The notes under the pieces: model-generated
Database searches by the model: none
Told to the model about the DNA's origin: nothing
Seen by the model: the letters and a program-made list of their open reading frames with translations, nothing else
Part shown: one piece after another, positions 128-27,325 of the stretch
Layout: every line of letters begins with the position of its first letter
Position numbering within the stretch: the first letter of the stretch is position 1
DNA from: a virus
Virus record (IMG/VR): IMGVR_UViG_3300043411_000939
Location: 1 to 37,440 of that record
DNA length: 37,440 nucleotides
Reading direction: 5' to 3' (one strand)
Position numbers and translations under genes: made by a program

Positions 128-169
128 CTCGACTTCAACATCTATTTTCTTAGGTCTTCCCATTTTCAT
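1..169 (-). CDS. 5' part of a junction-spanning hypothetical protein (same gene as 37135..37440; about 115 aa in the circular genome)
   Basis: The ATG at 169..167 overlaps the portal TGA stop (168..166) as ATGA. The open frame MKMGRPKKIDVEVEDKHEEKHNAKEIKKENKEV... runs off position 1 and, through the 127-bp identity, is in frame with ORF 37135..37386. Confidence 0.6.
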   Translation of the reverse strand, partial: MKMGRPKKIDVEVEDKHEEKHNAKEIKKENKEVLKAEKKADHQSVPTLTLADIKQA

Positions 170-2199
170 TTCCTTCCGGCTGTGACGGGCATTGCTGCCT
201 GCGCCGCTTGTGCTTTTCTTATCGCGTTTAAAGCTTTGGTTTTCGTGGACTGTGGCAACATGCTCTCTTCAATCAAGAGGTCCGGCGGCAATAGCCCTGG
301 ATATGTGGCGGCAAAGTCTTTCAAGTCTGCGCTGTTGGCCATCTTCATTGTTTCGCTGGATACCGACTCGCCAACCGCCACGTCATAGGTTCCAAGTTCG
401 CCAGATAACACGGCGGCAATGGCCTGATCGGCGGCTTCCAGGTCTAATTCCATAACTGGGTTCCCGTCCGGGCCACGTTCGGGAACGGTGACAGGTTGCC
501 CCGTGGCCGGGTCGAGGGCCTGAGTTAAACGTGGTTGTCCAAAATGTTCCATGAGGAACGATTCCCCGAGAATCTTTTTCGCTGTCTCCGTGTCATAAAT
601 TTTGCCCAATTGGCTGAGCAGCATTTTCCCGGCAATGGTTCGTGTGCGGGAAAGGTTGTCGAATAGCTCTTGGACCATGATAAGGCCTTGGCGTTGACGC
701 AAAGCGATAGCGCGGCCGGATTGAGAGTTCCCTTGATCGACGGCCAAGAGGTCGGCGTTAATACCGAGCTGGGCTTTGATGGCCTCCGCTGATTCGTTGG
801 CAATTTGAGCGTGTGCTTGTGAAAGAGGCTGTGGAAATATGCGGGTTGGGACGGGCTTCCCTTTCTTAAATTCAAGGTTGGCTCCGGGTGTTGCTCCGAA
901 ATCTCTAACTTTGTTCGCATCAACCCACGTATCCTCCTCGGTCAACCATCCCGAATTCGTGGACGTGTTTAAGTGGAGCAGTTCAAGCGTCTTTGACTTG
1001 TTATGGATTTCCTGGGCGTTCTTAACGGTGCAAACAACGCCCTGAACCAATAGATGCGCGTCGTCGCCTGTGATTGGCGCGGTCGAGAAACGCGCATAAA
1101 ACGGGACAAACGGATATTTTTTCCAAAGCGGGTAGAACCACGCCACCTCGTCAACGAGCGGCTTATCGATGCCGGGGACGTGGGCATAAAGCCAAATCTC
1201 TGGCACGTACCGGGTGTAATGAACAAACCGTTCCGGGTCATGCTGGGGCGGCTGGATGGGCTCAATCGGGATCGGGATAAGCGGATCAATCTGCGCCATT
1301 TGCATTTGTTGCTTAAAGGCTTCAACGTCGCCTTGGTAGGCTTGAGCGTTGGCCATTATTTCGTCTTGATAGCCTTGAATGAAGGCGTTGGCCTTCTCTT
1401 CATTTTCAGATTCAACGATGGTTCCGTTGGCGCGGTCGGCAATATAGTGTTTTGAAACAAATTTCTTATAGAAGCGTTCGAGGAGGTCGCAACAGCCCTC
1501 GCCGTTATTCCCGCCGTCTTCACCACTTCCACCACCCCGGATGGAATAGTCTTTCTTTTGGAGGTGAACGCCGCTGGCATCGGTTCCGTAGTTAAGCTTT
1601 CCGGGGTTGCCGTTTTCAATCAAACTCTTCTTATCGGGGAATAGGCTGATCAGGTCATCGATGCTTAAATCTTTGGTAACTTTGTAAACGTAGCGAGCAT
1701 CCGAGTAATCATATTCCCGAAATCCCGGCTCCGGGAAAATACAGTCGCCGTCGGCTTTGCGCCATACGGGTTTGCCGTTGATCAGGTCATAAGTATTATC
1801 AAGATAGAGTTCGAGGTGTGACTCTCCGCAGGTGGTCCCGTCTTTAAATTGTTCCGATGTCTTATAGAGAAATTCGGATGTCTTGATGGCGTTTTTAAAG
1901 AGATAGGACGCGATTTCGGCTTTAAGGGAATCTTCCTGGCCCTCGGGGTACGCCTTAAACTCGGAGCGGTTCTGTCTCTCAAGGCCCGTCAAAAGGAATA
2001 TGTTTGGCTGAATACGGTTGTCCGTGACGGGTTTAATCTTCCGTTGCTCATAGTTGGCGATATCGTCATCGCTCCATTGTTTGCCCAAAGCAAATAGGAA
2101 ATCGTCTTTCTCGCGTTCGATCAGCTTACGTTTGGCGTTATAGGCCTTTTTAAAGTCTGATTCCGACGATTGGATGGTGAGATCTTTTTTCTTATACAA
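166..2199 (-). CDS. Portal protein (P22-like portal family)
   Basis: 677 aa, downstream of the terS/terL block. The N-terminus KDDFLFALGKQWSDDD...KPVTDNRIQPNIFLLTGLERQN resembles P22 gp1 (KNDLFFSRVSQWDD...VVRPVVRKLVSEMRQN). The ORF track start is a TTG, so the exact start is uncertain. Confidence 0.85.
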   Translation of the reverse strand: MYKKKDLTIQSSESDFKKAYNAKRKLIEREKDDFLFALGKQWSDDDIANYEQRKIKPVTDNRIQPNIFLLTGLERQNRSEFKAYPEGQEDSLKAEIASYLFKNAIKTSEFLYKTSEQFKDGTTCGESHLELYLDNTYDLINGKPVWRKADGDCIFPEPGFREYDYSDARYVYKVTKDLSIDDLISLFPDKKSLIENGNPGKLNYGTDASGVHLQKKDYSIRGGGSGEDGGNNGEGCCDLLERFYKKFVSKHYIADRANGTIVESENEEKANAFIQGYQDEIMANAQAYQGDVEAFKQQMQMAQIDPLIPIPIEPIQPPQHDPERFVHYTRYVPEIWLYAHVPGIDKPLVDEVAWFYPLWKKYPFVPFYARFSTAPITGDDAHLLVQGVVCTVKNAQEIHNKSKTLELLHLNTSTNSGWLTEEDTWVDANKVRDFGATPGANLEFKKGKPVPTRIFPQPLSQAHAQIANESAEAIKAQLGINADLLAVDQGNSQSGRAIALRQRQGLIMVQELFDNLSRTRTIAGKMLLSQLGKIYDTETAKKILGESFLMEHFGQPRLTQALDPATGQPVTVPERGPDGNPVMELDLEAADQAIAAVLSGELGTYDVAVGESVSSETMKMANSADLKDFAATYPGLLPPDLLIEESMLPQSTKTKALNAIRKAQAAQAAMPVTAGRK

Positions 2200-2763: not shown

Positions 2764-2867
2764 ATGTCCCCCCTGTCTTTACAATCGCCGCAAACAATGT
2801 CATCACCCAAAACGCCCATGAAGTGAGTTCCACAACCGGCGCATTCAATCTCTTGAAATTCAGGCAT
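2760..2867 (-). CDS. 35-aa zinc-ribbon miniprotein (below the ORF-track length cutoff)
   Basis: Hand translation gives MPEFQEIECAGCGTHFMGVLGDDIVCGDCKDRGDI (CxxC...CxxC). The ATG overlaps the terL TAA (TAATG) and the stop overlaps the next ATG (ATGA). Confidence 0.5.
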   Translation of the reverse strand: MPEFQEIECAGCGTHFMGVLGDDIVCGDCKDRGDI

Positions 2868-4276
2868 TAGATCGTCATCCCTGATCCCGCCGTTTCAAAT
2901 CGGCGGTTAAATCTCTTTTCATATTTGTCTTCTCGTTTGACGGGCTTCACTTGAGGCAAGGCCCAAAGCCCGTTAAGGAAAGCGTCGGCATCGTCCGGGG
3001 AACGGCCAAACCGGGATTTGATGTCGTCTTTTGGTTCAACTTGGAGGATCCCGTTTGATTTGATGGTTTTGTATTTGGCCCAGGAAAGCTGCTCGATGAG
3101 TTCTTTGTCGGTTTTTAGGATGCTGACCCGTCCGGCTTCAAAGAGTTCGGCGCCGTTAAGGTAGATTTCTGATCGTCGGTTGTAACAGTCTTGGCGGACG
3201 CCTTGACGCTCGGCGGCATTTACAAAGATCACGTCTTTGTCGAGTTCGGCCAATCGGTCGGCGACGCCACCACCAACCCCGATTTCATCGATAGCGAATG
3301 ATTCGATGCCGTGTTTCTTGGCAAAGGCCAAAGCCAACCCCACGGTTTCCATTGTTGACCTTTTTTCATGGGTTTCCTTGGCAATCTCAGCGTTGTTTTC
3401 AATAGCGATAAAGACGGTTTTGTCGTCGCCGTACCTGGAGACGTCAATCGATACAACCTTACGGATGGGCGGGATTGTGCTTAGTTCACGGCCAATGGCT
3501 TTCTCGATATGCTCCGGCTTGATAATGGTGTTGACGGAATCGGCCTCTTCCCATGAGTTCAAAACAAAGCGGCGGTAAAGGTGTGGTTTCTGTAAACGGA
3601 TAATCTCAAGGCTGGCCATGAATTCTGGGCTTAAGTTGTGTTTGTTGTCAGCCGTGGTGGCCTCAAATAATGCAACCAATTCTTTGGCATCGGTAAGCCC
3701 TGGGAATAGGTCCGGCTGAGTTCGCATCAACTCTGCGACGGTTTGAACCAGGTCGCCACGTTTCCAAAGGTTGTATATCCAGTTGTGGCCGTTCGTGTTC
3801 GCGATAATGAAACCGCTGTTGGGCGATCCTTTGCGGCGTAACCGACCAAATAACTTGATAAATTGGTCGTCGGAATCAAGTTCCTCCGCTTGCTCAATCA
3901 TGAACCAACCCAGGTTCATATTCTGGATGTTGTTCATTTCTTCCAAGTGGCGAAACATGATGATGGATCCGTTGGGAAGCTTCACGTTGCGGCCGGAGTC
4001 AACTTTCAGGGCGGTATAGAGTTCGAAATCTCGGATGGTCGAGTCTTTAAGGTCGGTAAATTCTTTACGGAAGATGACGCCAAGGTTGTCTTTGTAGCTC
4101 TCTGACAGGCGCATGGCCCTTGCAATGCCACACATGGTTTTGCCCGTCCCCCAACCGGCGACAAAGGCGGGATACCTGGCATCGGTGAAAATAAAATCGT
4201 CTTGTTGCGGGTAGAGGTTAATAACCCGGTCCTTTTCTTGTTGCACTTCGCCAAGTGCCGGGAGGGCGTTAATCAC
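2867..4276 (-). CDS. terL: Terminase large subunit
   Basis: 469 aa with Walker A AGWGTGKT and a C-terminal RNase H-like nuclease motif VSIDVSRYGDDKTVF. It overlaps the terS stop. Confidence 0.92.
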   Translation of the reverse strand: MINALPALGEVQQEKDRVINLYPQQDDFIFTDARYPAFVAGWGTGKTMCGIARAMRLSESYKDNLGVIFRKEFTDLKDSTIRDFELYTALKVDSGRNVKLPNGSIIMFRHLEEMNNIQNMNLGWFMIEQAEELDSDDQFIKLFGRLRRKGSPNSGFIIANTNGHNWIYNLWKRGDLVQTVAELMRTQPDLFPGLTDAKELVALFEATTADNKHNLSPEFMASLEIIRLQKPHLYRRFVLNSWEEADSVNTIIKPEHIEKAIGRELSTIPPIRKVVSIDVSRYGDDKTVFIAIENNAEIAKETHEKRSTMETVGLALAFAKKHGIESFAIDEIGVGGGVADRLAELDKDVIFVNAAERQGVRQDCYNRRSEIYLNGAELFEAGRVSILKTDKELIEQLSWAKYKTIKSNGILQVEPKDDIKSRFGRSPDDADAFLNGLWALPQVKPVKREDKYEKRFNRRFETAGSGMTI

Positions 4277-4659
4277 TTCTTCTCCGCCCTGACAAAGATC
4301 ATTCGGCCACTGACGGCCACCTCATGTTTATCAACAAACATCCCGAGCGTTTTCCCGATACATTCCAAAGCTTTGTTGGCCCCGGCGGCGTCAAAATCGT
4401 CTTCCGTCATCCCTTTTTGCATACAGCGCTCGGCAATCTCTTTAAAGTTGTTGATCACCCAAGTAGCTGATATCTCGCTCTTTTCCTGCAAAACTTTCTG
4501 ATTTCTCTCTATTTGTTCTCTCACCTTAAGATCTCTTAAGAGCTGGGAAGCTTGCACCTCGGCGGTCTTCTTTGAATACCCAGCACGAATAGCAGCCTGT
4601 TTCCCGTTATTGTCCTTGAGATATTCCCGAACGAATGCTTTGCGTCTGTTCAGGTTCAT
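4273..4659 (-). CDS. terS: Terminase small subunit (Terminase_2-type)
   Basis: 128 aa. RKAFVREYLKDNNGKQAAIRAGYSKKTAEVQASQLL matches the conserved N-terminal HTH of Terminase_2 small subunits. Lies immediately upstream of terL. Confidence 0.85.
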   Translation of the reverse strand: MNLNRRKAFVREYLKDNNGKQAAIRAGYSKKTAEVQASQLLRDLKVREQIERNQKVLQEKSEISATWVINNFKEIAERCMQKGMTEDDFDAAGANKALECIGKTLGMFVDKHEVAVSGRMIFVRAEKK

Positions 4660-4703: not shown

Positions 4704-5216
4704 ACATGAGAGATTTTTAAAACAAAGCTGGCGCAAATTGACTCCATTCAAATCAAGAATGCTCTGCGCCTACAGAGTTTTAGTGCAATGAATGGTTCTT
4801 AAAGCTATTTTCCTTTTTGGTCAAGAGATATTTTATCGCATGATGCAAAGGCGACAGGGGCAAGGGTTTTTCTTTGGCGGGGGATCTTTAAAGAGGGATG
4901 AGAACCAGAGGCGGAAGCGAAAGATCATTACAAAGGGAATCCGTTAAAAGCGAAAGAATCAGTGGGTATAGATTGGGTAGTTAAAAACATAAATTTTAAT
5001 AAGCAATCCTTAGACTTTGATTCCCGTCGAAACGTGAAATAATAAACCCCGTTATTTCGAGCTATTGGCCATGAATTGATTGTTTTGGGTTATTGTCCTA
5101 CCACATAACGACCCAAGGCATAATTTCATTAACTTTCGCCCATCTCCCCGGGTCCAACGGTCATAGAAAACATTTGGCGCAAATAAAGGCAGATTTGGGC
5201 ATTGATTCGTCTCCTT
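4704..5216 (-). other. About 510-bp untranslated region between an early gene and terS (late-operon leader, pac/cos region, or ncRNA)
   Basis: No credible ORF on either strand. Purine-rich on the plus strand at 4850-4980, with AGCGAAAGA at 4916 and 4949. Ends in the terminator above. Confidence 0.4.
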
Positions 5217-5561
5217 CTACCCTGCTTTTGTGGGATTCGGGGCCGTTCCCCCACAATCACAACGAGGATGATGGAAAGTAAGCGTATGAACGCTTGCCAC
5301 TTCATCCCTGGCCTGGTCTATAGACAATTCTTCTTTGCCCTTAGCTTTGCGAATCGCGTTCTTCAGGTCGAATAGAGTTTCAGATATATTCGCCAAATCA
5401 GCCACGGCATTGAAAACCGTCGTTTCGTCCATCCCGTCCAGCGATTCGTTCCTCACGTTTTCCAAGGCCAAGTGTATGGCCCAGAAAATTTCATCACCGT
5501 TAAAATCGGGCAAGTCTCCACCAACATTTTTGACCATGATCGTTTCAAACCCTGTTTTCAT
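5217..5561 (-). CDS. Hypothetical protein (114 aa)
   Basis: The ORF overlaps the methyltransferase stop and is acidic. No motif recognised. Confidence 0.6.
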   Translation of the reverse strand: MKTGFETIMVKNVGGDLPDFNGDEIFWAIHLALENVRNESLDGMDETTVFNAVADLANISETLFDLKNAIRKAKGKEELSIDQARDEVASVHTLTFHHPRCDCGGTAPNPTKAG

Positions 5562-6402
5562 TAAATACCCCCATTAATCTTTTGAACGCTTCTTTCGCTT
5601 GTTCTGGAACCACTGCATTGCCAAGACATTTAAGTTTGTCCACCCGGTTTGGTACCCCATGAGCCACTCGACCCATGTCGGGTTCAACTGACCACCAACC
5701 GACGTCGGCAGATCGCTCTGCCGACCGCCCCTGGCTATCGTTCCCTTCCCTGGCTTCGTGTAGTTGTGGTTTTGTGGCGTTGGCCATACCTTCACTTGGT
5801 GAGGAAGATTCCCGTGTCCCGACTTCTCCCCGTCCGTCCCCAAGTGAGTTCGCCACAGCATACGCTTTAACTTTGCTTTCCCATTCTTCCCGCCATTGTT
5901 GGCCCCGCATGGTGTAGGCCAGAAGCCACCATCTTTCCCGCTTGTGGTTGGCCCCGACTTCGGAAGCCGATAAAGTGATCCACCGAGCGTCATACCGCAA
6001 GCGGGCCAATTCTCCGATAACTTTGTCGGCGCCTCTTGTCCGAATAGCAGGGACGTTTTCCAGGAAGATGAACTTCGGTCGTATTTCATCAACGAGTCTG
6101 ACGATCTCATAAAATAGGCCGCTCCGCTCTCCGCCCAAGCCTTTTCCAGTTCCCGCAACACTAATATCCTGACATGGGAATCCTCCATATACGATGTCCA
6201 CAAGTCCATTGAATCTTGCACCTTTGAGTGTTCGCACATCATCCCAGATGGGAGCAACAGGCAATTTACCTTCTTGCATACGTGACAGTAATACACCAAT
6301 CGCGTATTCTTCACTCTCACAATAGGCGACGGGGATGACCCACTCTTTGAGGGCGATTGTGATTCCACCGATACCTGTAAAAAGATCCAAGCCATTCAGC
6401 AT
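5545..6402 (-). CDS. DNA (cytosine-5)-methyltransferase, orphan
   Basis: Motif I LDLFTGIGG, motif IV GGFPCQDIS, motif VI FLENV, motif VIII-like HKRERWW and motif X LGNAVVPE. No restriction endonuclease gene is adjacent. Confidence 0.9.
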   Translation of the reverse strand: MLNGLDLFTGIGGITIALKEWVIPVAYCESEEYAIGVLLSRMQEGKLPVAPIWDDVRTLKGARFNGLVDIVYGGFPCQDISVAGTGKGLGGERSGLFYEIVRLVDEIRPKFIFLENVPAIRTRGADKVIGELARLRYDARWITLSASEVGANHKRERWWLLAYTMRGQQWREEWESKVKAYAVANSLGDGRGEVGTRESSSPSEGMANATKPQLHEAREGNDSQGRSAERSADVGWWSVEPDMGRVAHGVPNRVDKLKCLGNAVVPEQAKEAFKRLMGVFNENRV

Positions 6403-6674
6403 TTCCCTTTATTCCTGTTTTCTACGACCGTCAAACATCCCTCCCGCTCTCTTCTTTTTCTTCTATGGTCAAGGAAAAACACAAACTGTAGGCGCTCATT
6501 GTCTTTTTCATCCTCGCAACGCATCCTCGACTCTTTTTTACAACGAGCGCATTTCGCCAATAAGAAGTTGTATCTGTGGGCTGTCATGGCTTGATTTATT
6601 TCCTCTTGAAGATCGGTATCTTTTAGCGGTTCCCATATATGACCTTTTAAATAACAAAAGAATTTTTTAAGCAA
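6396..6674 (-). CDS. Hypothetical Cys/His protein (92 aa)
   Basis: The N-terminus FCYLKGHIWEP...CARCKK is zinc-ribbon-like and the C-terminal half is low complexity. Overlaps both neighbouring genes. Confidence 0.5.
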   Translation of the reverse strand: MLKKFFCYLKGHIWEPLKDTDLQEEINQAMTAHRYNFLLAKCARCKKESRMRCEDEKDNERLQFVFFLDHRRKRREREGCLTVVENRNKGKC

Positions 6675-7311
6675 ATTGAAATTCCAGTGCAGCTTCTTCC
6701 AGTTCCTTTTCTGTTTCTCTCACATACGGCATCACAGAGTTAAGGCTCGCCCACCCGCCAAGCTTTTGAAGTGTCCACGGATCATGATTATGTTTCCTTA
6801 ACGTCGGGAAGCTCGCTCGAAAACTATGTGGCGTGATTCTCTTTTGAATTCCCGCTTGGTTAACATACTTTTGAATAAGAATATCAACCGCTTTCGGAGT
6901 GATCCTTCCGGCTTCATAAGGCCCATGTTTACCAAGCGTTCTAAACAGCGGAGAACTTGGTGTTCGTTGATGATCAAGATCGCAGTACCTTTTAATTCCT
7001 TCGTACACCTTATCTGAAATAGGCACTCGGACCCAGAAAGTCCTTTCTGTTTTTTTCTTGAGAGCTTTGTAAATGATGAATTTCTTTTCGCCTTCACTGA
7101 TTAAATTCTCCGTGTCCAAACTGCAAATCTCGCCTTTACGCATAGCGGTATTTCCAAATGCCAATAAAACGGCATAATCTCTTGATCCGTGTTTACTTCT
7201 CCGGTCCGGCAACGTCATAATCATTTGTAATTCCTGTTCTGTTAAAACGTCCGACTGTCCGACCGGCCTTCCTCTCTTCCCCTGTGCGCCTATCACCTGG
7301 GCTTGCTCCAT
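6667..7311 (-). CDS. Tyrosine recombinase, short (214 aa, catalytic domain only), Cre-like active site
   Basis: Box I NTAMRKGEICSL (Arg). Box II TPHSFRASF (His-x-x-Arg). LGGWASLNSVMPYV has Trp in place of the second His, as at Cre W315, plus the nucleophile Tyr. Confidence 0.8.
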   Translation of the reverse strand: MEQAQVIGAQGKRGRPVGQSDVLTEQELQMIMTLPDRRSKHGSRDYAVLLAFGNTAMRKGEICSLDTENLISEGEKKFIIYKALKKKTERTFWVRVPISDKVYEGIKRYCDLDHQRTPSSPLFRTLGKHGPYEAGRITPKAVDILIQKYVNQAGIQKRITPHSFRASFPTLRKHNHDPWTLQKLGGWASLNSVMPYVRETEKELEEAALEFQFA

Positions 7312-9530: not shown

Positions 9531-9731
9531 TTAAGAGATTTTTACGATGGAACAAAACTCCGCCAGTTTTAAAAGAGCAGGGGCATATAATTCAGCCACC
9601 AGTTTCTTATGGAGTTCCGGCTGTTTTTCCTCTGTCGATTTCCAGCAAGCTTGTAAGGCTTTTATTTTTTCCACAGTGTCGGAAGAAATAGTATCCCACT
9701 GAACATCTTCATATTTATATTTAAAGTTCAT
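9531..9731 (-). CDS. Hypothetical protein (66 aa from MNFKYKYED...; the ORF track extends it to 9791)
   Basis: The internal ATG at 9731 gives an 11-nt overlap with the radC-like stop, instead of a 70-nt overlap. Confidence 0.5.
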   Translation of the reverse strand: MNFKYKYEDVQWDTISSDTVEKIKALQACWKSTEEKQPELHKKLVAELYAPALLKLAEFCSIVKIS

Positions 9732-10278
9732 AGTTCTCATTCCGATGGCTGTAATATTTGTCCGTCCCATCTCCCACCACAATAAAATCACGCATGGGGG
9801 TGTTCAGGCGTTGCCCCAATTCCCGGAACTCTTCCAAAATCAGTTTGTCTTCATCGCTCAAGAAAATCTTCCCGGATGGATGATTGTGACCAAGAATAAA
9901 TCCATGCGCGAGAAACAGCGGCGACAGAACAATCGAAAAAACTTGTTTCGGGTCAACCATGACATGATTCGTTGAACCGATGCCGACCGTCTTTGTAAGG
10001 ATTGGATAGTTATCAACATTTAGAAGAATCAAAACCATCACTTCGATGCCATCCCCATGGTGGTTGTGCTGAATGCTTATCTCATTGCGAATCAAGTCAA
10101 CCGCAATTTGCGGCGCCGATATGGATTCCTTTGGGATAGACATCACGCCATCTCTGACCATTTTCATCCTAGGGATATCAACAAACTCTTGGCGTTTGGG
10201 CGCTGGTTGGATGGCGCGTCTTTTCGCGTCTTCAAATAATTCTCTAAAGAGTTTTTGGTTTTGCTTTCGTTGTTCCAT
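9721..10278 (-). CDS. RadC-like JAB/MPN domain protein
   Basis: GFILGHNHPSGKIFLSDEDKLILEEF matches the RadC JAMM motif (H-x-H-P-S-G...S-x-x-D). Confidence 0.8.
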   Translation of the reverse strand: MEQRKQNQKLFRELFEDAKRRAIQPAPKRQEFVDIPRMKMVRDGVMSIPKESISAPQIAVDLIRNEISIQHNHHGDGIEVMVLILLNVDNYPILTKTVGIGSTNHVMVDPKQVFSIVLSPLFLAHGFILGHNHPSGKIFLSDEDKLILEEFRELGQRLNTPMRDFIVVGDGTDKYYSHRNENYEL

Positions 10279-10941: not shown

Positions 10942-11367
10942 TTATAATCCTCCTCTGAAAATGGGGCTTCCGTTTTTAATCCATTCTTCATACGTCGGAT
11001 GTTTCGGGACTTTTATCCCCACTTCTTTTAACTCCTCGGCTCCCACATTCCCTTTTTCCGGCAATGACGGATGGTTGCTTTCGATGATGAAAAAAGAGGC
11101 ATAAGGTTTTATTTCTTCAAATCCCGGATTGTAATAAGCGAACTTTGCGACCACTTTTGTTTTGCTCATGACTTCCTTAAAGGTTGTCTGGCCTTCCATT
11201 TCGAGTGCGTTTTGTCTTTGACGTGAAAACCCGGCATACCACGCGCTTTTTCTAGCGGCCTCAAGAATAGTTTGCTCATCTTTGCTGAGTGACCGCCCGT
11301 CCCGTTTCGCACGCTCAGCAACAACACCGGCACGAATTAGCATAGATTCAACGTTTGTTCCGTTCAT
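10942..11367 (-). CDS. Hypothetical protein (141 aa)
   Basis: ORF in the operon, with ATGA overlap to the upstream gene. Confidence 0.6.
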   Translation of the reverse strand: MNGTNVESMLIRAGVVAERAKRDGRSLSKDEQTILEAARKSAWYAGFSRQRQNALEMEGQTTFKEVMSKTKVVAKFAYYNPGFEEIKPYASFFIIESNHPSLPEKGNVGAEELKEVGIKVPKHPTYEEWIKNGSPIFRGGL

Positions 11368-11555
11368 ACTTTTGCCACCTTTTCCGGGTAAAACACGCTG
11401 ATCAACAAATCAATCACTTTTAATTCTTCATTCAATTCCCGGATTCTTTCACGTCGCTTTTTTTCGTTGCTTGCTTTTTCTTTTTTCTCTTTCAAATATG
11501 AAAGTGTGTTTAAAATATCTTTTCTTTCGAGTAGTAAATGTGGGTAGTCGTTCAT
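11364..11555 (-). CDS. Hypothetical coiled-coil protein (63 aa from MNDYPHLLLER; the ORF track extends it to 11639)
   Basis: The ATG at 11555 directly follows the TAA of the upstream 48-aa ORF (TAATATG). Lys/Glu-rich. Confidence 0.5.
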   Translation of the reverse strand: MNDYPHLLLERKDILNTLSYLKEKKEKASNEKKRRERIRELNEELKVIDLLISVFYPEKVAKV

Positions 11556-11556
11556 A

Positions 11557-11703
11557 TTAATACCCCAAGAAATAACGAACGTCTTGAACGTGGTAGGTTT
11601 CAACGTCACCGAATTGTTTAAAAAAGCAGTCCAAATCAAACGCGCTCATCGCATGGTCTTTCAGCATCTTTACGGCTTCGTCTTTCGTGATCATGTTTTT
11701 CAT
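11557..11703 (-). CDS. 48-aa hypothetical protein, first gene of the early operon (below the ORF-track cutoff)
   Basis: Hand translation gives MKNMITKDEAVKMLKDHAMSAFDLDCFFKQFGDVETYHVQDVRYFLGY. GGAGG lies 6 nt upstream of the ATG, and the gene sits downstream of the promoter at 11740..11768. Confidence 0.5.
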   Translation of the reverse strand: MKNMITKDEAVKMLKDHAMSAFDLDCFFKQFGDVETYHVQDVRYFLGY

Positions 11704-11739
11704 ATGCGGCCTCCATATGTTTCGATTTGCTTATAACTA

Positions 11740-11768
11740 ATTATGTCCCCTGATATCATAATTGTCAA
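11740..11768 (-). promoter_or_regulatory. Sigma70-type promoter (minus strand) with a TGATATCA palindrome in the spacer
   Basis: The minus strand reads TTGACA (11768..11763), a 17-nt spacer, then CATAAT (11745..11740). The spacer contains TGATATCA (11751..11758). Confidence 0.55.
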
Positions 11769-11833
11769 CAAGTATTATGCGGATATAATATTGGTTGGTG
11801 TTTTCGATGCGAAATAACGTGGCGAAATAGTGG

Positions 11834-13249
11834 CTAAATATCTCCTTCTTTTTGCTTATTTTCAACATGGGGGTCGGCGTTGTACTCTGCGACCTTTTCC
11901 CGCGCAATTAAAAGGTTTGGGCGAACCTTAATTTCAAGGATATCCTTGCCATCGGTGGCGTCAATAATTTTGCCGCGGGTAACCTTCAACATATAGTCGA
12001 TCTTATCCGCCGTTTCAATTAAAGATGCAAAAAACGAGTCGCCATCCCAAGTCGTTGTTTCGTGCAATTGTTTAAGTGCTTTTTTGAATTCGCGAAATCT
12101 GGTGCTTTTGTAATTGTGCCAGTCCGCCTTTGGAAGAAAAAGCTTCTTAATTAAATTGGCTAAGGTTATTTTGAAACCCTCCCCGCCATCATTTTTATTT
12201 GATACACGAGACTCAATATATTGCTGTATCTTGATAGCCAATTCGTTTTTGTTGTTTATCTGTTTCAAATTGTCTTTGGACCTGAGAACGGTTTTCCTCA
12301 TTAGTAAACTATGACTATAGAATTCCGAAAAAGTCACCTTAAAAACAAGGTCTGTCTTTTTATCCGACTCAGAATGGATAACGATGGGTTTGTCGATAAA
12401 ATAAACGGTGACTGTTTTTCGTTTCTCTTTTTCAAACCCAGGCAATCCCGCAAAATCCCAATAATAAGAAATCCCTCCGATTCGGCTAACACGCCGCGCC
12501 AAATCTTTTAAATTTTTACCACCGAATTTCTGATATCCAAGTTTATCCGCCAATCGTCTAATTGAAAATTGACACCAACATTTAACATGGTCGCCGCTGG
12601 TTTTTTTATGTCCGTCTTCTTGCCAAATTAAAACTATCTTTTTAATAATCTCCGTATCTTCAACGGTCAACATCCCCCAATCATTATCGTTTGGGAACCC
12701 CTTTCCACGAGCCATAGGGATTTCGTATTCGTTCCCGTCAACAAAGCGAATGGTAGTTTTAACCATATCGCTTTTGTTCTTATTTTTATCGGTTGAAAGA
12801 GTTGAATATTCAGGGCCAAAGAAAGTAGGGACAGGGATTCCCATGTTACTGTAGGGCTTATCCATAAACGAATCAAAACGAATGGTCGCCTCTGTTTTAT
12901 TTTCAAGTTTCTCTTTAAAGTTTTCATCTTTCTCGGTCGCCGTCATGATGTCACCAACCGAATCAAAGAAACAACTACGGGATCTCCTTTCAACGAATTT
13001 GCCAGCCCCCAAATCGGAAATAAGACGAGTCAGCATTGTGGTGAAAAATTTAGCGGGATCCATAATGGTTTTATCCCCGTCCCTTGTTTTAAGCAAATAA
13101 CACAGTTCCCCAAACTCTTCCCTAAACATGCCCTCCCCGCATTTTTCAAGAGCCTGTAAATAGAAAGGGCGGCTTTGTGGTGATTTGGTTATCGCCACAA
13201 CCTCGTTTAAAAGTTGGTCTATTCTGTCTTTGTCGTTGAAGTTATCCAC
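11834..13249 (-). CDS. Replication initiator, Rep_3/RepB-like (iteron-binding, inferred)
   Basis: 471 aa, immediately downstream of the iteron array. Winged-helix-like segments include FSIRRLADKLGY..GGKNLKDLARRVSRI, ELAIKIQQYIESR and FKITLANLIKKLFLP...Y.STRFREFKKALKQLHE, judged by eye. Confidence 0.6.
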   Translation of the reverse strand: MDNFNDKDRIDQLLNEVVAITKSPQSRPFYLQALEKCGEGMFREEFGELCYLLKTRDGDKTIMDPAKFFTTMLTRLISDLGAGKFVERRSRSCFFDSVGDIMTATEKDENFKEKLENKTEATIRFDSFMDKPYSNMGIPVPTFFGPEYSTLSTDKNKNKSDMVKTTIRFVDGNEYEIPMARGKGFPNDNDWGMLTVEDTEIIKKIVLIWQEDGHKKTSGDHVKCWCQFSIRRLADKLGYQKFGGKNLKDLARRVSRIGGISYYWDFAGLPGFEKEKRKTVTVYFIDKPIVIHSESDKKTDLVFKVTFSEFYSHSLLMRKTVLRSKDNLKQINNKNELAIKIQQYIESRVSNKNDGGEGFKITLANLIKKLFLPKADWHNYKSTRFREFKKALKQLHETTTWDGDSFFASLIETADKIDYMLKVTRGKIIDATDGKDILEIKVRPNLLIAREKVAEYNADPHVENKQKEGDI

Positions 13250-13284
13250 AATTTTGAAAATTCATTCCCCTCTTAATGATTTAT

Positions 13285-13312
13285 CTTAAAGCATTAAAAC
13301 TTAAAGCATTAA
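13285..13312. repeat. Two 13-bp direct repeats CTTAAAGCATTAA in an AT-rich stretch between rep and the iterons
   Basis: Copies lie at 13285..13297 and 13300..13312. The second merges into the 10-bp palindrome GCATTAATGC (13306..13315). Candidate DNA-unwinding element or rep operator. Confidence 0.6.
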
Positions 13313-13342
13313 TGCTAGAAGCCCGGTTTTCATAGACGAGCA

Positions 13343-13510
13343 TTTGTACGTCGGACCATGCCCCCCCCCTCTTTTTTGTACGTCGGACCATGCCCCCCCC
13401 CTCTTTTTTGTACGTCGGACCATGGCATTTGTACGTCGGACCATGGGTCGGAAGGGGTTATCCACAGCTTTTGTACGTCAGGCCATGGCCGATTTGTACG
13501 TCAACCCATG
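13343..13510. repeat. Iteron array (origin of replication): six 18-bp direct repeats TTTGTACGTCGGACCATG
   Basis: Four perfect copies start at 13343, 13375, 13407 and 13428. Two variants are TTTGTACGTCAGGCCATG (13470) and TTTGTACGTCAACCCATG (13493). Spacings are 32, 32, 21, 42 and 23 bp, close to whole helical turns. Confidence 0.85.
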
Positions 13511-13522
13511 GACTAAAAACAC

Positions 13523-13870
13523 TTAATTTTCCATTGCCCTTTGTGAAAGAGCTTTATCCCAAAAATGTTCATATAGAAATCGCTCAAAAAGGCTACTGTT
13601 CCCGTATTTCGTATAAAAATACCGCATCAATTTACAGATTGTTCCGTTAAGTTTAATCTTTTCAATATCCCCGTTTTCTCCGTATGCGACATTTTCAATA
13701 AACGGCCCTATTTGACCATCTGGATGCTCGTCGATCATTATTTTAAAACAAGCCTCTTCATCCTGTTTCTGTTCCGGCCACGGCAAAGAAAGCAACTTTG
13801 CTAAATTTTTCGAATGCGTTAATTCGTCAACATTCAAAGCAGCCTCTAATCTTTCATCAATCCATCCCAT
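13523..13870 (-). CDS. Hypothetical protein (115 aa from MGWIDERLE; the ORF track extends it to 13978)
   Basis: The ATG at 13870 is preceded by AAGGAGGG at 5-6 nt. The longer version would overlap the upstream gene. Confidence 0.55.
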   Translation of the reverse strand: MGWIDERLEAALNVDELTHSKNLAKLLSLPWPEQKQDEEACFKIMIDEHPDGQIGPFIENVAYGENGDIEKIKLNGTICKLMRYFYTKYGNSSLFERFLYEHFWDKALSQRAMEN

Positions 13871-13955
13871 TCCAGCCCTCCTTACGCGATTTTCATGTTT
13901 TGCATGACATAGCCCGTTTCCACAACAAAATGCAACCTTGGACGTTCTAGGCCCG

Positions 13956-14462
13956 TTAAACCCGAACCCCCGTTTCAAAGAGCGACAAAACCCGACATTC
14001 CCGGTTTTCAGCCTTTGGAATCCAAAGGAAATTCGCGTTCGTATAGGGGGCTAATAAATAGCGACATTCTTGCCACAATTGGCGGATGGTGTCGTTTTCG
14101 GGGGCGGGGCGGTTGGTGGTAAAGGATTCGATGACCATTCGACTATCGTTTCGGAACGCACAATAATGGTCGGTCCAGTTCCGGTCAACCATCCATTTAA
14201 GGGCTTCCCTTAACGCGATAAACCGGGAAATAAGATCGTTTCCGCTGAATTCGGGAAGGTTTGGAATCGGGCCGGAATCTTTAAATATTTGTTGGCCGTT
14301 TAAGTGGGCGATGAAAGACCAAGCGGATTCATGCGGCGGGAATTCGTGATAGATGCCATCGAAATAAATCGTGATGTTGTCGGCGCGGTTGGGTTTCTTT
14401 GGTGGTGGCATACGCTCAATGGTTCTCCGTTGTTTTGATTGAAAGCGCGGAAGTTCTAGCAC
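13956..14462 (-). CDS. RNase H-like domain protein
   Basis: ITIYFDG (Asp), ISRFIALREAL (Glu), AFRNDSRMVI (Asp) and IPKAENRECRVL follow the order of RNase HI/RVT_3 catalytic motifs. The ORF-track start is a GTG; an alternative ATG lies at 14411. Confidence 0.5.
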   Translation of the reverse strand: MLELPRFQSKQRRTIERMPPPKKPNRADNITIYFDGIYHEFPPHESAWSFIAHLNGQQIFKDSGPIPNLPEFSGNDLISRFIALREALKWMVDRNWTDHYCAFRNDSRMVIESFTTNRPAPENDTIRQLWQECRYLLAPYTNANFLWIPKAENRECRVLSLFETGVRV

Positions 14463-14542
14463 ATTTTAAAACGTGATATCACCATTATTTAAAAATAATC
14501 CTTCCCTAAGAAAATAAAAAGCTTTAAGTCGAACTTTGTGCA
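14463..14542. promoter_or_regulatory. Divergent AT-rich control region between the minus-strand early arm and the plus-strand recombination block
   Basis: An 80-bp AT-rich gap between divergent genes. It contains the 10-bp palindrome GTGATATCAC (14473..14482), which includes the third TGATATCA copy, and ATTATTT-AA-AAATAAT (14484..14499). Confidence 0.45.
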
Positions 14543-14962
14543 ATGGAAACAGAAATTACGGTTCAAAAACTTCGTGATGGTTGGCTTTTTTTCATGCCGT
14601 TATGTCCTTCAACCAACGCGAGGATGCAGCCGGTACGCATGGGTCGGCACTGTCAATCCATTCTGACAACAGAGGCAAGAAACTACATCGCCTCGACGGC
14701 CATTCAGTTGAAGGCGCACATGAAAGTAAACAAGATTAAACCGATCGAAACTTTCACTTATATGGATTTGTGGTTTATTTTGCCGAGAACGAATTGTGAC
14801 GCTCACAACTACGGGAAAGTGTTGTTTGACGCCATGGAAGAAGGCGGGTTTGTCACCAACGACAAGTTCATTTTGCCGCGAATTATGGGTGTGTCTTTTG
14901 ATGCGAAAAATAGCGCCGTTGTCGCCAAGATCCCGTTTTGTCGTACCGCTCCTAAGCCTTGA
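14543..14962 (+). CDS. rusA: RusA-family Holliday junction resolvase
   Basis: 139 aa. PSTNARMQP (the PPS.N-like insertion motif) and CDAHNYGKVLFDAMEEGGFVTNDKFI match the D.DN..K...D......DD core of RusA. Confidence 0.65.
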   Translation: METEITVQKLRDGWLFFMPLCPSTNARMQPVRMGRHCQSILTTEARNYIASTAIQLKAHMKVNKIKPIETFTYMDLWFILPRTNCDAHNYGKVLFDAMEEGGFVTNDKFILPRIMGVSFDAKNSAVVAKIPFCRTAPKP

Positions 14963-15113
14963 TCAAGGTATAAATTGGGTCGCTTGTTTGGTGTGTCGCC
15001 TAACACATCCCAACGGCGGCCCTTTTTTATTCATGATATTAAAATAGGCGTTGACTTCTAACGTAATCTCTAATATCATGGATGACAACAACGAACGCCA
15101 TGGAGGTCTTCTT

Positions 15114-16100
15114 ATGTTGCCGCAAAAGTCAGAACAAAACACACCAACCGAACCTGTTAAATCACCCGCCCTTCATGTCGTAAACCCACAAAGAATGGAC
15201 CGCACAAAATACATTGGCGGAACTGATGCCGCCGCGATTTGCGGGCTCTCGCAATGGAAAACACCAATACAAGTTTGGGCTTTGAAGACCGGGAAAATTC
15301 AAGAGGAAGATATTAGCGACAAGCTTCCCGTGAAACTCGGAATCAAACTTGAACAAACTGTTTGCGAATTGTTCATGGAAGAAACCGGAAAGAAATTACA
15401 CCGGGTTAATGAAACGCTTTTTCATCCGAAACATAAATTCATTGGCGCAAATATTGATCGCCGGGTTGTTGGTGAGAACGCTATCTTTGAAGCGAAAACA
15501 TGCTCCGCCTACAAAGATAAAGAATGGGCGAACGGAGAAATCCCTGCTGACTATATTCTGCAATGCCATCATTATTTGATGGTCACGGGCGCAGAACGTT
15601 GTTATCTCGCCGTCTTAATCGGGAATCAGGATTTTCAAATCAGAATTATTGAACGTGACGAAAAGGTGATGGCTTCATTGCTGGAAAGAGAAGTTTTATT
15701 CTGGAAGGATTATGTCGAAGCCGACATCATGCCGTGGGTTGTGACGCACCGAGACGGCGACACTATTTCCCAATTGTATCCCGTGGCCGATGAGGCAAAA
15801 GAAATAACGCTGGGTGATGACGCCAATAAACTAATCGAAAACCTGAAAGCCTTTGAAGCCGATCAAAAGAATCTCGACAATCTCATCAAACAGCACAAAA
15901 ACGAACTTAAACTTTTACTTGGTGACGCCATCCAAGGCTCAACCGGCATCAACCGCGTTCGCTGGATTAATTCCAAGCAATCTAATCTTGACGGAAAAGG
16001 TTTGCTTGAAAAATATCCGGACATCCACAAAGAATTTTATAGCAGTACCCCCGTTAGGCGATTCAGTTGTGGGGCAATTAAGAAGGAAAAGGAAGGATAA
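15114..16100 (+). CDS. YqaJ-like (lambda Exo-type, PD-(D/E)XK) recombination exonuclease
   Basis: YIGGTDAAAICGLSQWKTPIQVWALKTGK ... IDRRV ... IFEAKT ... QCHHYLMVTG. The ATG at 15114 has GGAGG 7 nt upstream; the ORF track starts it at a TTG at 15051. Confidence 0.85.
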   Translation: MLPQKSEQNTPTEPVKSPALHVVNPQRMDRTKYIGGTDAAAICGLSQWKTPIQVWALKTGKIQEEDISDKLPVKLGIKLEQTVCELFMEETGKKLHRVNETLFHPKHKFIGANIDRRVVGENAIFEAKTCSAYKDKEWANGEIPADYILQCHHYLMVTGAERCYLAVLIGNQDFQIRIIERDEKVMASLLEREVLFWKDYVEADIMPWVVTHRDGDTISQLYPVADEAKEITLGDDANKLIENLKAFEADQKNLDNLIKQHKNELKLLLGDAIQGSTGINRVRWINSKQSNLDGKGLLEKYPDIHKEFYSSTPVRRFSCGAIKKEKEG

Positions 16101-16103
16101 GCA

Positions 16104-16899
16104 CATGGCAAAATTAGGCGACATTCAGAATTCAATTCAAGGGAATAATTTAACAGCGGCCCCGGCGCGGTTGGCTCAATTGTTGGGGCGTGTTGACATT
16201 AAAGAAAAGTTTCAAGAAATGCTTGGGAAGAAATCAGCGGGTTTTCTTTCATCAATATTGTCGCTTTATAATTCAACGCCACAACTGCAAGCGTGTGATC
16301 CCATGTCGATCATTGCCTCCGCTGCCATTGCCGCAACTCTTGACCTTCCAATTAACCAAAACTTTGGATACGCGTATCTTATTCCATATGGGAATCAGTG
16401 CCAGTTTCAATTGGGATATAAAGGAATTATCCAATTAGCCATGCGGACCAGTATGTATAAAACAATCTCCGCTGCCGAGGTTTATGAGGGCGAGTTGGTT
16501 AAATATAACCGCATCACCGGAGAAACGGAAATCGACGAAAGCAAGCGCACCTCTGACAAAATAATTGGATATGTTGCCTACTTCAAATTGCTGAGCGGAT
16601 TTGAAAAATATCTTTTTATGAAAGTCGAACAGATCGAAGCGCATGGAAAGAAATTCTCAAAATCTTACGGACGAACATCGGGGCCATGGTCAACAAACAA
16701 AGAAGCCATGATGCAAAAAACGCCGCTCAAGTTATTACTTTCAAAATACGGCGTGCTTTCAATTGAAATGCAAACAGGAATGACGTTCGATCAAGCGGCT
16801 GTTAAGAAACTCGAAAACCCGGTTCCTGAATATATCGACGGAATGGAAATCAACGACGCGATCGAACCCGCCGACATTCCATCGCCAGACGTGAAATAA
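16104..16899 (+). CDS. recT: RecT-family single-strand annealing protein
   Basis: 265 aa from MAKLGDIQ. SIIASAAIAATLDLPINQNFGYAYLIPYGNQCQFQLGYKGIIQLAMRT is the RecT core. Lies directly after the exonuclease gene; the 5' extension in the ORF track is an overlap artefact. Confidence 0.88.
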
Positions 16900-17685: not shown

Positions 17686-18132
17686 ATGAGCAAGAATAAA
17701 GAAGAACTTAAGCCGTGTCCGTTTTGTGGATTTAATAAATGCGAATTAATTAATCCATTGAATGGAACATCTCCATATGTTTCTTGCGATAAATGCCACG
17801 CGGATTTTTATGCCGTAAGTTGGAACAACGCCTATTGCTGGAAAGAAATCGACTCTCTCAAATCCCAGCTTGCCGAGAAGTGTAACCATAAATATATTTT
17901 CAGCCCAATTGACACTGAATTACACGTCCGTGAACTAGAAAATAAACTTGCCGAGTCTGAGAAAGCATTAGCGGAACGCGACCGTCTGCTCCTTGAAAAG
18001 GAACGTCTTTTACAGAAAGTGGTGGAAGGGCTTGATACCTTATCGAAACCATGCGGTAGTTTTGCAAACGTTATGGAAATCGCAGAAAAGTATCTTAAAG
18101 AAATCCGCAGCTCGGTCGGTGGTTCTAAATGA
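17686..18132 (+). CDS. Lar-like zinc-ribbon protein with a coiled-coil C-terminus
   Basis: LKPCPFCGFNKCEL...VSCDKCHADFYAVSWNNAYCW resembles the Lar restriction-alleviation family N-terminus (KPCPFCG...C..C...WN). The remainder is predicted coiled coil. Confidence 0.5.
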   Translation: MSKNKEELKPCPFCGFNKCELINPLNGTSPYVSCDKCHADFYAVSWNNAYCWKEIDSLKSQLAEKCNHKYIFSPIDTELHVRELENKLAESEKALAERDRLLLEKERLLQKVVEGLDTLSKPCGSFANVMEIAEKYLKEIRSSVGGSK

Positions 18133-21100: not shown

Positions 21101-21547
21101 TTATTTAGAAACCGTCGCATCGGATTTGAAAATTTTTTCATACGCAACATTGATCCCCTTTTGCCCTATGAACACGAATAACGCCCCAACCAACCCATAA
21201 ATAAAAGTCTTTTTCATGAATCCAATTTCTTTTTCTATGGGCGCCAACTTATGATCGTCGAAATTCTTAATCATGAGCCTGGTGTGGTCGGCTGATTCCC
21301 TGACAACCGCTTTCATGTCTATGGTTGATAGTTCGAGTTTGTGGGAGAGGTCGGCAATTGAAAGTTTTATCTCGCTGTTCTCTTTCCGAACCTCGTTCAA
21401 CGACGGAGAAACCCCGTTGTTGATTCGGTTCATGAGTTCTTTAATCTCGTGGGCAAGTTCCGTATAGTCGCGTTGACCGTTTGAAATCTTCGTGTCATGC
21501 TCTGACACGCGCCGGTCAAGGGATGCGAGATAATCGACTTCGTTCAC
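21101..21547 (-). CDS. Coiled-coil protein with a C-terminal TM anchor (148 aa)
   Basis: GTGA overlap with the M23 peptidase stop. TM is TFIYGLVGALFVFIGQ near the C-terminus. Confidence 0.6.
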   Translation of the reverse strand: MNEVDYLASLDRRVSEHDTKISNGQRDYTELAHEIKELMNRINNGVSPSLNEVRKENSEIKLSIADLSHKLELSTIDMKAVVRESADHTRLMIKNFDDHKLAPIEKEIGFMKKTFIYGLVGALFVFIGQKGINVAYEKIFKSDATVSK

Positions 21548-21975
21548 GTTCGCGCCCCTTCAAATTCGAACGGAACGCCTTTTTCGCGAATGGGCCTTAC
21601 TTCAAGATGAAGATGTGGCCCGGACGATTTGCCCGTGTTTCCAGAAAGGCCAATCCGTTTTCCCGCTTCAATATATTCCCCTTCTTTAACATCAATATGG
21701 GACATGTGGCCGTAATACACCTGGTAAGGGGTGTTATTAATCCTCACGTACTGGCAAACGTAAAACCCAAATCCTTCTTTTTCGTCATGGCTGTTTTGCC
21801 ACCCGGCCTTGATAACTTCTCCGCCAATCGCCGCAACAATGGGGGTTCCGACCGGGACCGCGAAATCAACACCGTAGTGCATCGATGACTCAACGCCCGT
21901 CACGGGATCTTTCCTTTTCCCGTAGGGGCTGGAAATTGGGAACGTCCAGGCTACGGGGCGAAAGACTTTAATCAT
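21544..21975 (-). CDS. M23 (LytM-type) peptidoglycan endopeptidase; probable endolysin
   Basis: HYGVDFAVPVGTPIVA (HxxxD) and GNTGKSSGPHLHLEVR (HxH) are the canonical M23 zinc ligand motifs. Confidence 0.9.
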   Translation of the reverse strand: MIKVFRPVAWTFPISSPYGKRKDPVTGVESSMHYGVDFAVPVGTPIVAAIGGEVIKAGWQNSHDEKEGFGFYVCQYVRINNTPYQVYYGHMSHIDVKEGEYIEAGKRIGLSGNTGKSSGPHLHLEVRPIREKGVPFEFEGART

Positions 21976-26962: not shown

Positions 26963-27325
26963 TTAAAAGACAATAAGCGTAACGGTGGTCGATGCCACGT
27001 TGCACTTTAAAAATAAATTCGTTTTCGTGCTGGCCGCACTTCGATAAATCACCCCGGCTTTGTCGATGTCGGCGATAATAAAGCCGGTTGGAACCTTGCC
27101 AAGCGTGTGCGTCACGCTATCCTGCGTGTCCGGCGTTGCGTTTGATGTGTAGGTCACATAAACACAATCAACGTTATCGCCGAAGCTAATCCCCGAGTCC
27201 AAAATACTTTGCAGATTGTCGGCTTGATCATCCAGGACTGTGACAATGTTTTTATCGAAGGGCCGAAACAGCTTTATGTCGCCGGTGAATAGCGTCGGGA
27301 AAGAGGGGCGCTTGTAGGTCGTCAT
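26963..27325 (-). CDS. Virion structural protein (120 aa)
   Basis: ATGA overlap with the 512-aa gene. Late operon. Confidence 0.6.
   Translation of the reverse strand: MTTYKRPSFPTLFTGDIKLFRPFDKNIVTVLDDQADNLQSILDSGISFGDNVDCVYVTYTSNATPDTQDSVTHTLGKVPTGFIIADIDKAGVIYRSAASTKTNLFLKCNVASTTVTLIVF

Follow-up and report, generated by a model that had tools for sequence, protein, structure and literature searches.

How does a tailed phage with no recognisable polymerase, primase or helicase gene start the copying of its own DNA? The question is raised by the IMG/VR virus record IMGVR_UViG_3300043411_000939, which we analyzed in its entirety (37,440 bases, the window), and specifically by the region 11834-13522, where a gene for a 471-amino-acid (aa) protein, here called rep, lies beside an array of direct repeats (iterons). 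The record belongs to the class with direct terminal repeats, and its repeat is an exact overlap of 127 bp. As this is the largest k-mer size in common assemblers, we take the record as a circularly closed assembly of ~37.3 kb and not as one with physical ends. A first reading made from the letters alone (the sequence-only reading) had claimed a plasmid-type iteron theta origin with its cognate initiator, and the claim stands: the predicted fold of the protein matches the initiators RctB and RepE, and its homologues are found behind phased iterons, near ParA genes, on plasmids. We put at roughly 0.8 the probability that 11834-13522 is a complete plasmid-derived iteron-type theta replicon and that this tailed phage, a circular assembly of 37.3 kb, has no other replication function that we could recognise. 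The elements of the region are the following.

11834-13249, minus strand: rep, 471 aa, with a GTG start
13242-13250, plus strand: perfect DnaA box TTATCCACA, overlapping the rep GTG start (TTGTGGATAAC on the gene strand)
13251-13322: AT-rich segment of 72 bp with 26% GC, candidate DNA-unwinding element and/or rep promoter-operator
13316-13337: conserved element of ~20-22 bp, in gene orientation GTCTATGAAAACCGGGCTTCTAG (also written CTATGAAAACCGGG), between the iterons and the AT-rich segment
13343-13510, plus strand copies: six 18-bp iterons with the unit TTTGTACGTCGGACCATG, in gene orientation CATGGTCCGACGTACAAA
13458-13466, plus strand: perfect DnaA box TTATCCACA, within the 42-bp gap separating iterons 4 and 5

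The iterons start at positions 13343, 13375, 13407, 13428, 13470 and 13493, with start-to-start spacings of 32, 32, 21, 42 and 23 bp. Four copies are perfect, one has two mismatches and another has three; over 32 bp, a run of nine C included, units 1 and 2 are identical to each other. The unit is confined to the array within the window, and none of 100 dinucleotide shuffles reached six matches (mean 0.05). All copies are located 94-261 nt upstream of rep, in the 273 nt that separate it from the preceding gene, whose stop is at 13523. Read along the gene strand, the stop of that gene is thus followed by the iterons, the AT-rich segment and rep. This array has the direct, helically phased repeats, at least three in number, of an iteron-type (class A) theta replicon. 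The sequence-only reading had described six 18-bp units (four perfect and two variant) with these same spacings, and had placed an AT-rich segment with a twice repeated motif and a palindrome next to them; our measurements reproduce both descriptions. We also considered the repeats as a partition site (centromere) and rejected this, because neither ParA nor ParB was found in the phage. As a separate observation, every iteron holds three short palindromes (GTAC, ACGT and CCATGG), and an orphan C5 methyltransferase encoded at 5545-6402 raises the question of whether iteron methylation modulates Rep binding, as Dam methylation does for RctB.

The DnaA boxes had not been listed in that earlier reading. 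The consensus box TTATCCACA has just two exact copies in the genome (both strands, 37.4 kb), both of them in the origin. Since only ~0.3 perfect boxes are expected genome-wide, two inside 225 bp are not due to chance. The AT-rich segment contrasts with a genome GC content of 46%, and by GC it falls in the bottom 0.08% of all 60-nt windows of the genome. It contains the 13-mer CTTAAAGCATTAA twice (13285-13297 and 13300-13312) and the palindrome GCATTAATGC at 13306-13315. The repeated 13-mer is also kept in the locus L003, whose Rep shares only 47% identity with that of the phage. In the same way, a motif nearly identical to the conserved element, CTATGAAAAnCnGGGCTCTAGAAT, appears at the same position in L003, L011, L016, L020 and L044, and it persists although those Reps are only 30-47% identical and their iterons differ. 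It is possibly a host-factor site or a promoter element. It also resembles a degenerate iteron (CTATG...CGGG), yet it does not co-vary with the iterons. GC skew along the genome tracks the direction of transcription and gives no signal specific to the origin. Neither an RNA-primed (ColE1-like) nor an antisense-RNA origin was supported, with no Rfam family in 11000-14800 and no significant RNA structure on the AT-rich strand (z -1.5).

The 471-aa gene noted beside the iterons was found as an open reading frame (ORF) at the expected place. Its product had no match in PHROG or NCBIfam, and against Pfam at E<=1 the sole match was at noise level (DUF7738, E 0.061). The profiles of Rep_3 (PF01051/Rep3_N) and RPA (PF10134) gave nothing at that threshold, so the label "Rep_3-like" of the sequence-only reading fails by sequence and we have not filed the protein in those families; among 51 relatives, four touch them weakly (three match RPA, best E 6.4e-5, and one Rep3_N, E 0.0082). 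The description of winged-helix-like segments, as in iteron-binding Reps, fared better. An AlphaFold model built on a 35-sequence alignment of the fetched loci reached a mean predicted local distance difference test score (pLDDT) of 76.8 and a predicted template modeling (TM) score of 0.69, superseding an earlier run on two aligned sequences (pLDDT 41). It predicts an N-terminal four-helix domain (4-81), a linker helix (98-117), a beta-rich domain (125-181) and two winged helices (~196-300 and ~325-426), both helix-helix-helix-wing units, followed by a disordered tail. Foldseek against the PDB at E<=1e-3 returned exactly four matches to this model, all to iteron initiators. Three were domains 2-3 of RctB (5tbf_A, E 3.4e-8; 5tbf_B, 6.1e-8; 5ubf_A, 1.2e-6; target TM 0.54-0.62) and the fourth was the RepE54-DNA complex (7sgc_C, E 1.6e-4, target TM 0.56). 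These central domains of RctB have been described as plasmid-initiator-like (PMC5397143). Against BFVD there was no match at E<=1e-3. As modelled, the rep product belongs to the tandem winged-helix (WH1-WH2) initiator fold class while standing outside the Rep_3/RPA sequence families.

The same features could be taken in another sense, with the array as a set of operators and the 471-aa protein as a transcription regulator (a repressor or an early-late switch) that does not initiate replication. Winged-helix proteins are often transcription factors, the array occupies a promoter-proximal intergenic region, the protein has no match to a curated Rep family, and iteron initiators autorepress too, so that the roles overlap. 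However, the significant fold matches are to replication initiators only, DnaA boxes and an AT-rich segment accompany the array, some homologues bear DnaA domain I, and homologues are the first and apparently the sole plausible replication gene of 5-kb plasmids with three or four genes. We consider a regulator highly improbable.

Those homologues came from a full HMMER scan of 1.84 billion representative proteins, which gave 113 relatives at E<=1e-3 and 45 at E<=1e-30, mostly of 400-470 aa; a word-indexed protein search had retrieved only one or two. Pattern scans yielded 80 metagenome loci and 30 loci from species-representative genomes. A tblastn search against plasmids matched the first gene of three complete plasmids of 5.0-5.7 kb from Candidatus (Ca.) Endomicrobium trichonymphae, with 27% identity over residues 156-354 (pairwise E 2e-16). 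The named hosts of the family are mostly Elusimicrobiota, together with three Acidobacteriota, in which the gene is on large contigs. It is carried by 24 of the 401 Elusimicrobiota genomes sampled, often in multiple copies on short contigs. Two pattern sets run against IMG/VR retrieved no member of the family. The members for which we saw a name, on the three Ca. Endomicrobium plasmids and in one NCBI Endomicrobiia record, were all annotated as hypothetical proteins.

Four of the 51 relatives carry DnaA_N (DnaA domain I) at the N-terminus (best E 1.8e-12). In this Endomicrobia branch DnaA_N replaces the helical N-terminal domain, and the gene is preceded by 22-bp tandem iterons. This arrangement of Rep and iterons is seen in L001 (pTGRD2; 1-1254 and 5440-5545) and in L004 (4608-6198). 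On its chromosome, Ca. Endomicrobium trichonymphae is reported to have dnaA only as a pseudogene (PMC5174739). All three plasmids of this organism encode a DnaA_N-type Rep, and a possible link to chromosome replication is a question worth asking. L004 is a 6.7-kb Endomicrobiia contig that combines a large terminase (Terminase_6N, 781-2217) with a DnaA_N-bearing Rep (4945-6198) and seven 22-bp iterons, and it may be a second phage associated with this replicon family.

Nearly all of 85 non-redundant regions upstream of the genes of this family have 3-7 repeats located 90-220 nt before the start codon, with spacings of 21, 22 or 31-33 bp. The repeat opens with (C/T)ATGG throughout and the remainder varies by Rep clade, the pattern expected of a cognate binding site. 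In pTGRD2, 4.8 perfect 22-bp tandem repeats precede the rep-family gene. DnaA-box-like nonamers (at most one mismatch, mostly TTATCAACA) were present in 62 of 81 upstream regions, at 2.9 per kb against 0.22 per kb elsewhere in the loci, a 13-fold difference. They cluster at -250 to -200, where they flank the iterons, and at -50 to -25. The overlap of a DnaA box with the start codon that we saw in the phage rep recurs exactly in L016 and L026.

The gene neighborhoods are those of plasmids. We clustered ~1,000 ORFs near rep in 106 loci and found that 78 of them have a gene for a ParA-type ATPase (AAA_31, E 3e-25) on the same strand as rep and ~580 nt upstream, and that 50 have one for a tyrosine recombinase of ~202 aa (Phage_integrase, E 2e-30). 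Small proteins are encoded between ParA and the iterons, and AbiEi-type antitoxins and methyltransferases recur near rep. Specifically, parA is followed in L016, L026 and L035 by a small gene, the iterons, rep, the recombinase and a C5 methylase, in this sequence. Besides, L074 is a circular 13.7-kb contig (127-bp terminal overlap) that carries the family and is too small for a tailed phage. The ParA genes, the complete plasmids and L074 indicate that the family is mainly a plasmid replicon. A further trait of the rep-bearing Elusimicrobiota plasmids (L006-L115) is that they repeatedly encode three downstream proteins of ~138, ~205 (with a signal peptide) and ~367 aa without a Pfam match, a conserved plasmid cargo or backbone.

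The replicon stands in a genome that is otherwise that of a tailed phage, with structural, packaging and lysis genes side by side with the Rep-iteron module. The other products identified by PHROG and Pfam scans, and the orphan that precedes the origin, are these.

166-2199, minus strand: portal
2867-4276, minus strand: large terminase (TerL)
4273-4659, minus strand: small terminase (TerS)
5545-6402, minus strand: DNA methyltransferase (orphan C5 cytosine)
6667-7311, minus strand: tyrosine recombinase of 214 aa (Pfam Phage_integrase)
9721-10278, minus strand: RadC-like JAB protein
13523-13978: orphan protein of 151 aa, upstream of the origin and in the same operon as rep
13956-14462, minus strand: RNase H-like protein, a weak match (phrog_531, E 8e-6; Pfam RVT_3, E 0.004)
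14543-14962, plus strand: RusA
15051-16100, plus strand: RecE-like exonuclease
15853-16899, plus strand: RecT
17686-18132, plus strand: Lar-like protein
21544-21975, minus strand: M23 endolysin
26143-26949 and 27322-28860, minus strand: tail fiber and virion proteins
34831-35964, minus strand: major capsid protein

Transcription diverges at 14462/14543, and rep is within a long minus-strand string that runs from early genes to packaging and then to structure. The sequence-only reading had found no polymerase, primase or helicase gene in the phage, and our searches agree with it. DnaB_C, DNA_pol_A, Toprim_4, Prim-Pol and DEAD had no match in a six-frame search, and the ORF scans with PHROG and Pfam detected no replication gene besides RecE, RecT, RusA and the weak RNase H-like match. 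Pfam gave nothing for replication, partition or repression on the 28 small ORFs of the phage. The 151-aa orphan, for which we found no relatives in IMG/VR, and the RNase H-like protein are candidate accessory replication functions, for example in helicase loading or primer removal. Just past the rep stop, at 11740-11790, two strong sigma-70-like promoters diverge from each other, TTGACA-17-CATAAT on the minus and TTGTCA-16-TATAAT on the plus strand, each agreeing with the consensus at 11 of 12 positions. They suggest that the small genes following rep have a transcription start of their own.

Comparison with other phages indicated where the module may have come from. Our queries had no DNA or protein match in the phage collection. 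In L166-L170 the major capsid protein is 67-85% identical and Rep is not seen as far as the contigs reach; relatives detected via RecE or TerL share recombination or structural modules only, never Rep. The closest structural relative in a genome bin is G129:C2 (L182-L186), a contig of 83.8 kb (1-83848) in an Elusimicrobiota bin, with a major capsid protein ~70% identical to that of the window phage. It is a head-to-tail 2.15-mer of a ~38.9-kb phage. Its copies differ by indels and share 92-99% identity (98-99% for the greater part of the unit), and the contig is either a concatemer from replication that long reads captured or an artefact of the assembly. No member of the Rep family was found anywhere in the G129 genome, and the Pfam tally of the non-structural half of its phage contains methylases, an HNH endonuclease and a DUF only. 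This contig supports Elusimicrobiota as the host phylum, and the host of our tailed phage is probably a member of it. As the structural relatives lack Rep, the replication module has been exchanged, with plasmids of the same phylum as the likely donor pool.

A captured plasmid segment could also be inert cargo, recently acquired and unused by a phage that relies on a replication system we did not recognise. The lack of the Rep family in the structural relatives and the empty pattern searches of IMG/VR would fit with it. Against it, rep is intact, four of the six iterons and both DnaA boxes are perfect, the module is in line within the early operon, and the 37-kb genome revealed no alternative replication gene. 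It is as improbable, in our judgement, as the regulator.

Several points weigh against a complete plasmid-derived replicon. The rep product has no sequence match to any curated Rep family, and the profile of the 51-sequence family gave only noise against PDB sequences. The fold evidence comes from a predicted model, with moderate TM values (0.30-0.40 when normalised by the query). The autoregulatory operators of pPS10 and pSC101 share iteron sequence, unlike the palindrome GCATTAATGC between the iterons and rep, which has no iteron half-site or other sequence in common with the iterons, and no sigma-70-like promoter was detected in the gap. Many small ORFs of the phage are unannotated, and a very divergent helicase loader or primase among them is possible. 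Finally, the host phylum was deduced solely via the binning of relatives in metagenome-assembled genomes.

If the region is such a replicon, the elements suggest how it would work. Rep monomers would bind the six helically phased 18-bp iterons through their tandem winged helices. Host DnaA would occupy its two consensus boxes, one beyond the AT-rich segment on one side and the other between iterons 4 and 5 on the other side, and both proteins would jointly open the 72-bp, 26%-GC segment between the iterons and rep. Elusimicrobia carry DciA and not DnaC or DnaI (PMC5109545), so that loading of the host helicase would pass through DnaA and the host loader DciA, possibly aided by the N-terminal domain of Rep. 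In the Endomicrobia branch DnaA domain I stands in place of this helical domain, which suggests that the N-terminal end deals with helicase recruitment. Host primase and Pol III would then copy the circle, and RecE, RecT and RusA would probably generate or process the concatemers required by the terminase. Since no other replication gene is detectable in 37 kb, the origin must serve vegetative replication. From this arrangement we infer that the proteins bind, that the segment melts and that the helicase is recruited, and likewise when in the life cycle the origin would be used.

Would the replicon also maintain the prophage? The phage could be a phage-plasmid, as the sequence-only reading proposed, like P1, N15 or SSU5, in which the replicon mainly maintains the prophage as an extrachromosomal circle and the recombinase resolves dimers, a way of life compatible with lytic use of the same origin. 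The Rep family is overwhelmingly plasmid-borne, and the succession of rep, short tyrosine recombinase and C5 methyltransferase mirrors in order and orientation the plasmid backbones L016, L026 and L035. The 214-aa recombinase consists of the catalytic domain only (Phage_integrase, E 1.5e-23, residues 22-201), without the N-terminal DNA-binding domains usual in integrases, and by analogy it may be the dimer-resolution partner of the replicon. The assembly is circular, with its 127-bp overlap and no host flank, and the related phage in the Elusimicrobiota bin appears as a pure head-to-tail concatemer contig and not within a chromosome.

On the other side, circularly permuted or terminally redundant virion DNA would equally assemble as a circle. 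The phage rep and the recombinase are separated by ~4.5 kb of small genes, and the recombinase and methylase have only 29% similarity to their plasmid counterparts, so we take the synteny as suggestive only. The six-frame searches had no match at E<=0.1 to ParA (AAA_31) or ParB_N, nor did the PHROG and Pfam scans, whereas 78 of the 106 plasmid relatives keep ParA by rep. No repressor was recognised either, with HTH_3 unmatched in the phage and nothing relevant among the small ORFs; these results bear out the remark of the sequence-only reading that it recognised neither ParA/ParB genes nor a repressor. A novel partition system in the phage is possible. Besides, rep is placed in the early-to-late minus-strand string downstream of a divergent early control region (14462-14543), the place that lambdoid phages give to their lytic initiator, and the integrative phage lambda also uses an initiator and an iteron origin, for lytic growth. 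A phage-plasmid lifestyle is plausible, though we judge it less likely than not.

A broader reading joins these strands, and we regard it as a little more doubtful still. This would be the first phage-plasmid, or plasmid-replicon-driven phage, of the Elusimicrobiota, one in which the ori-rep(-recombinase-methylase) backbone of the ParA plasmids resident in the phylum would have taken the place of the ancestral replication module. The phage would now be kept as an episome without partition genes and would use the same origin in lytic growth. The N-terminal domain of Rep would be a swappable helicase-recruitment module, because DnaA domain I replaces it in the Endomicrobia branch, in a host with a dnaA pseudogene.

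Iteron replicons, iteron-binding phage initiators and phage-plasmids are already well known (e.g. PMC7157519, PMC5397143). What is new is an unnamed and unannotated Rep sequence family whose origin grammar is well conserved, together with the findings that it goes with Elusimicrobiota plasmids and that a tailed phage carries it too. The family is defined by sequence, predicted fold and origin architecture, no Pfam, PHROG or NCBIfam model matches it, and it appears to be the main iteron replicon of Elusimicrobiota plasmids, whose replication we did not find described in the literature. The labelling of its members as hypothetical proteins is an annotation gap. To our knowledge, the phylum has very few cultured members, and a non-exhaustive search found no genetic tools for it; a shuttle vector could be built from the ~1.7-kb ori-rep cassette and its consensus DnaA boxes. 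The case also extends the exchange of replication modules between plasmids and tailed phages beyond the well-studied Proteobacteria and Firmicutes.

Among known systems, the phage-plasmids P1, N15 and SSU5 resemble this phage in joining a tailed-phage genome to a plasmid-type initiator and origin, as do the extrachromosomal mycobacteriophage prophages with RepA (PMC7157519). They differ in that neither partition genes nor an immunity repressor was found in the window phage. We found no description of a phage-plasmid of Elusimicrobiota in the literature. Lambda O and ori-lambda, with the analogues of P22 and phi80, offer a second parallel: a phage initiator, about four 18-19-bp iterons by an AT-rich region in lambda, use of the host replisome, and a place for the initiator in the early operon with Red-type recombination genes nearby. 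However, the iterons of lambda lie within the O gene, which is followed by the helicase loader gene P. Those of our phage are intergenic and upstream of rep, DnaA boxes are present, and no P-like gene was found; in the ORFs scanned near rep (11364-11639 and 13523-13978, a short one starting at ~11703 being left out) no helicase loader was detected. The rep product likewise had no Pfam or PHROG replication-initiator match.

A third parallel is with the iteron theta plasmids (mini-F RepE/ori2, R6K pi, pPS10 RepA, pSC101, RK2 TrfA/oriV and P1 RepA/oriR). These share with the phage origin and its relatives the phased direct iterons of 18-22 bp by an AT-rich segment and DnaA boxes, a rep gene adjacent in cis, a tandem winged-helix fold (predicted here, and matching RepE-DNA, 7sgc) and ParA alongside in the relatives. 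Unlike them, the phage Rep is outside Rep_3/RPA by sequence, its iterons stand at irregular intervals (32, 32, 21, 42 and 23 bp) and enclose a DnaA box, no inverted repeat related to them is seen at the promoter, and the carrier is a tailed phage in which no partition system was found. The protein is also about twice as large as RepE and has three parts more, namely a four-helix domain at the N-terminus, a linker helix and a beta-rich domain. [quoted passage not shown] The sites differ as well, as RctB binds Dam-methylated 11/12-mers and regulatory 39-mers (PMC8565311) whereas the phage units are 18-mers without GATC, and neither the regulatory domain 4 nor the crtS logic of RctB is evident in the phage. 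RctB is nevertheless the best structural match (5tbf, 5ubf; E 3.4e-8, target TM 0.60-0.62 over ~300 columns; PMC5397143), a multi-domain protein in which two plasmid-Rep-like winged helices are accompanied by flanking domains, acting at an origin that also uses DnaA.

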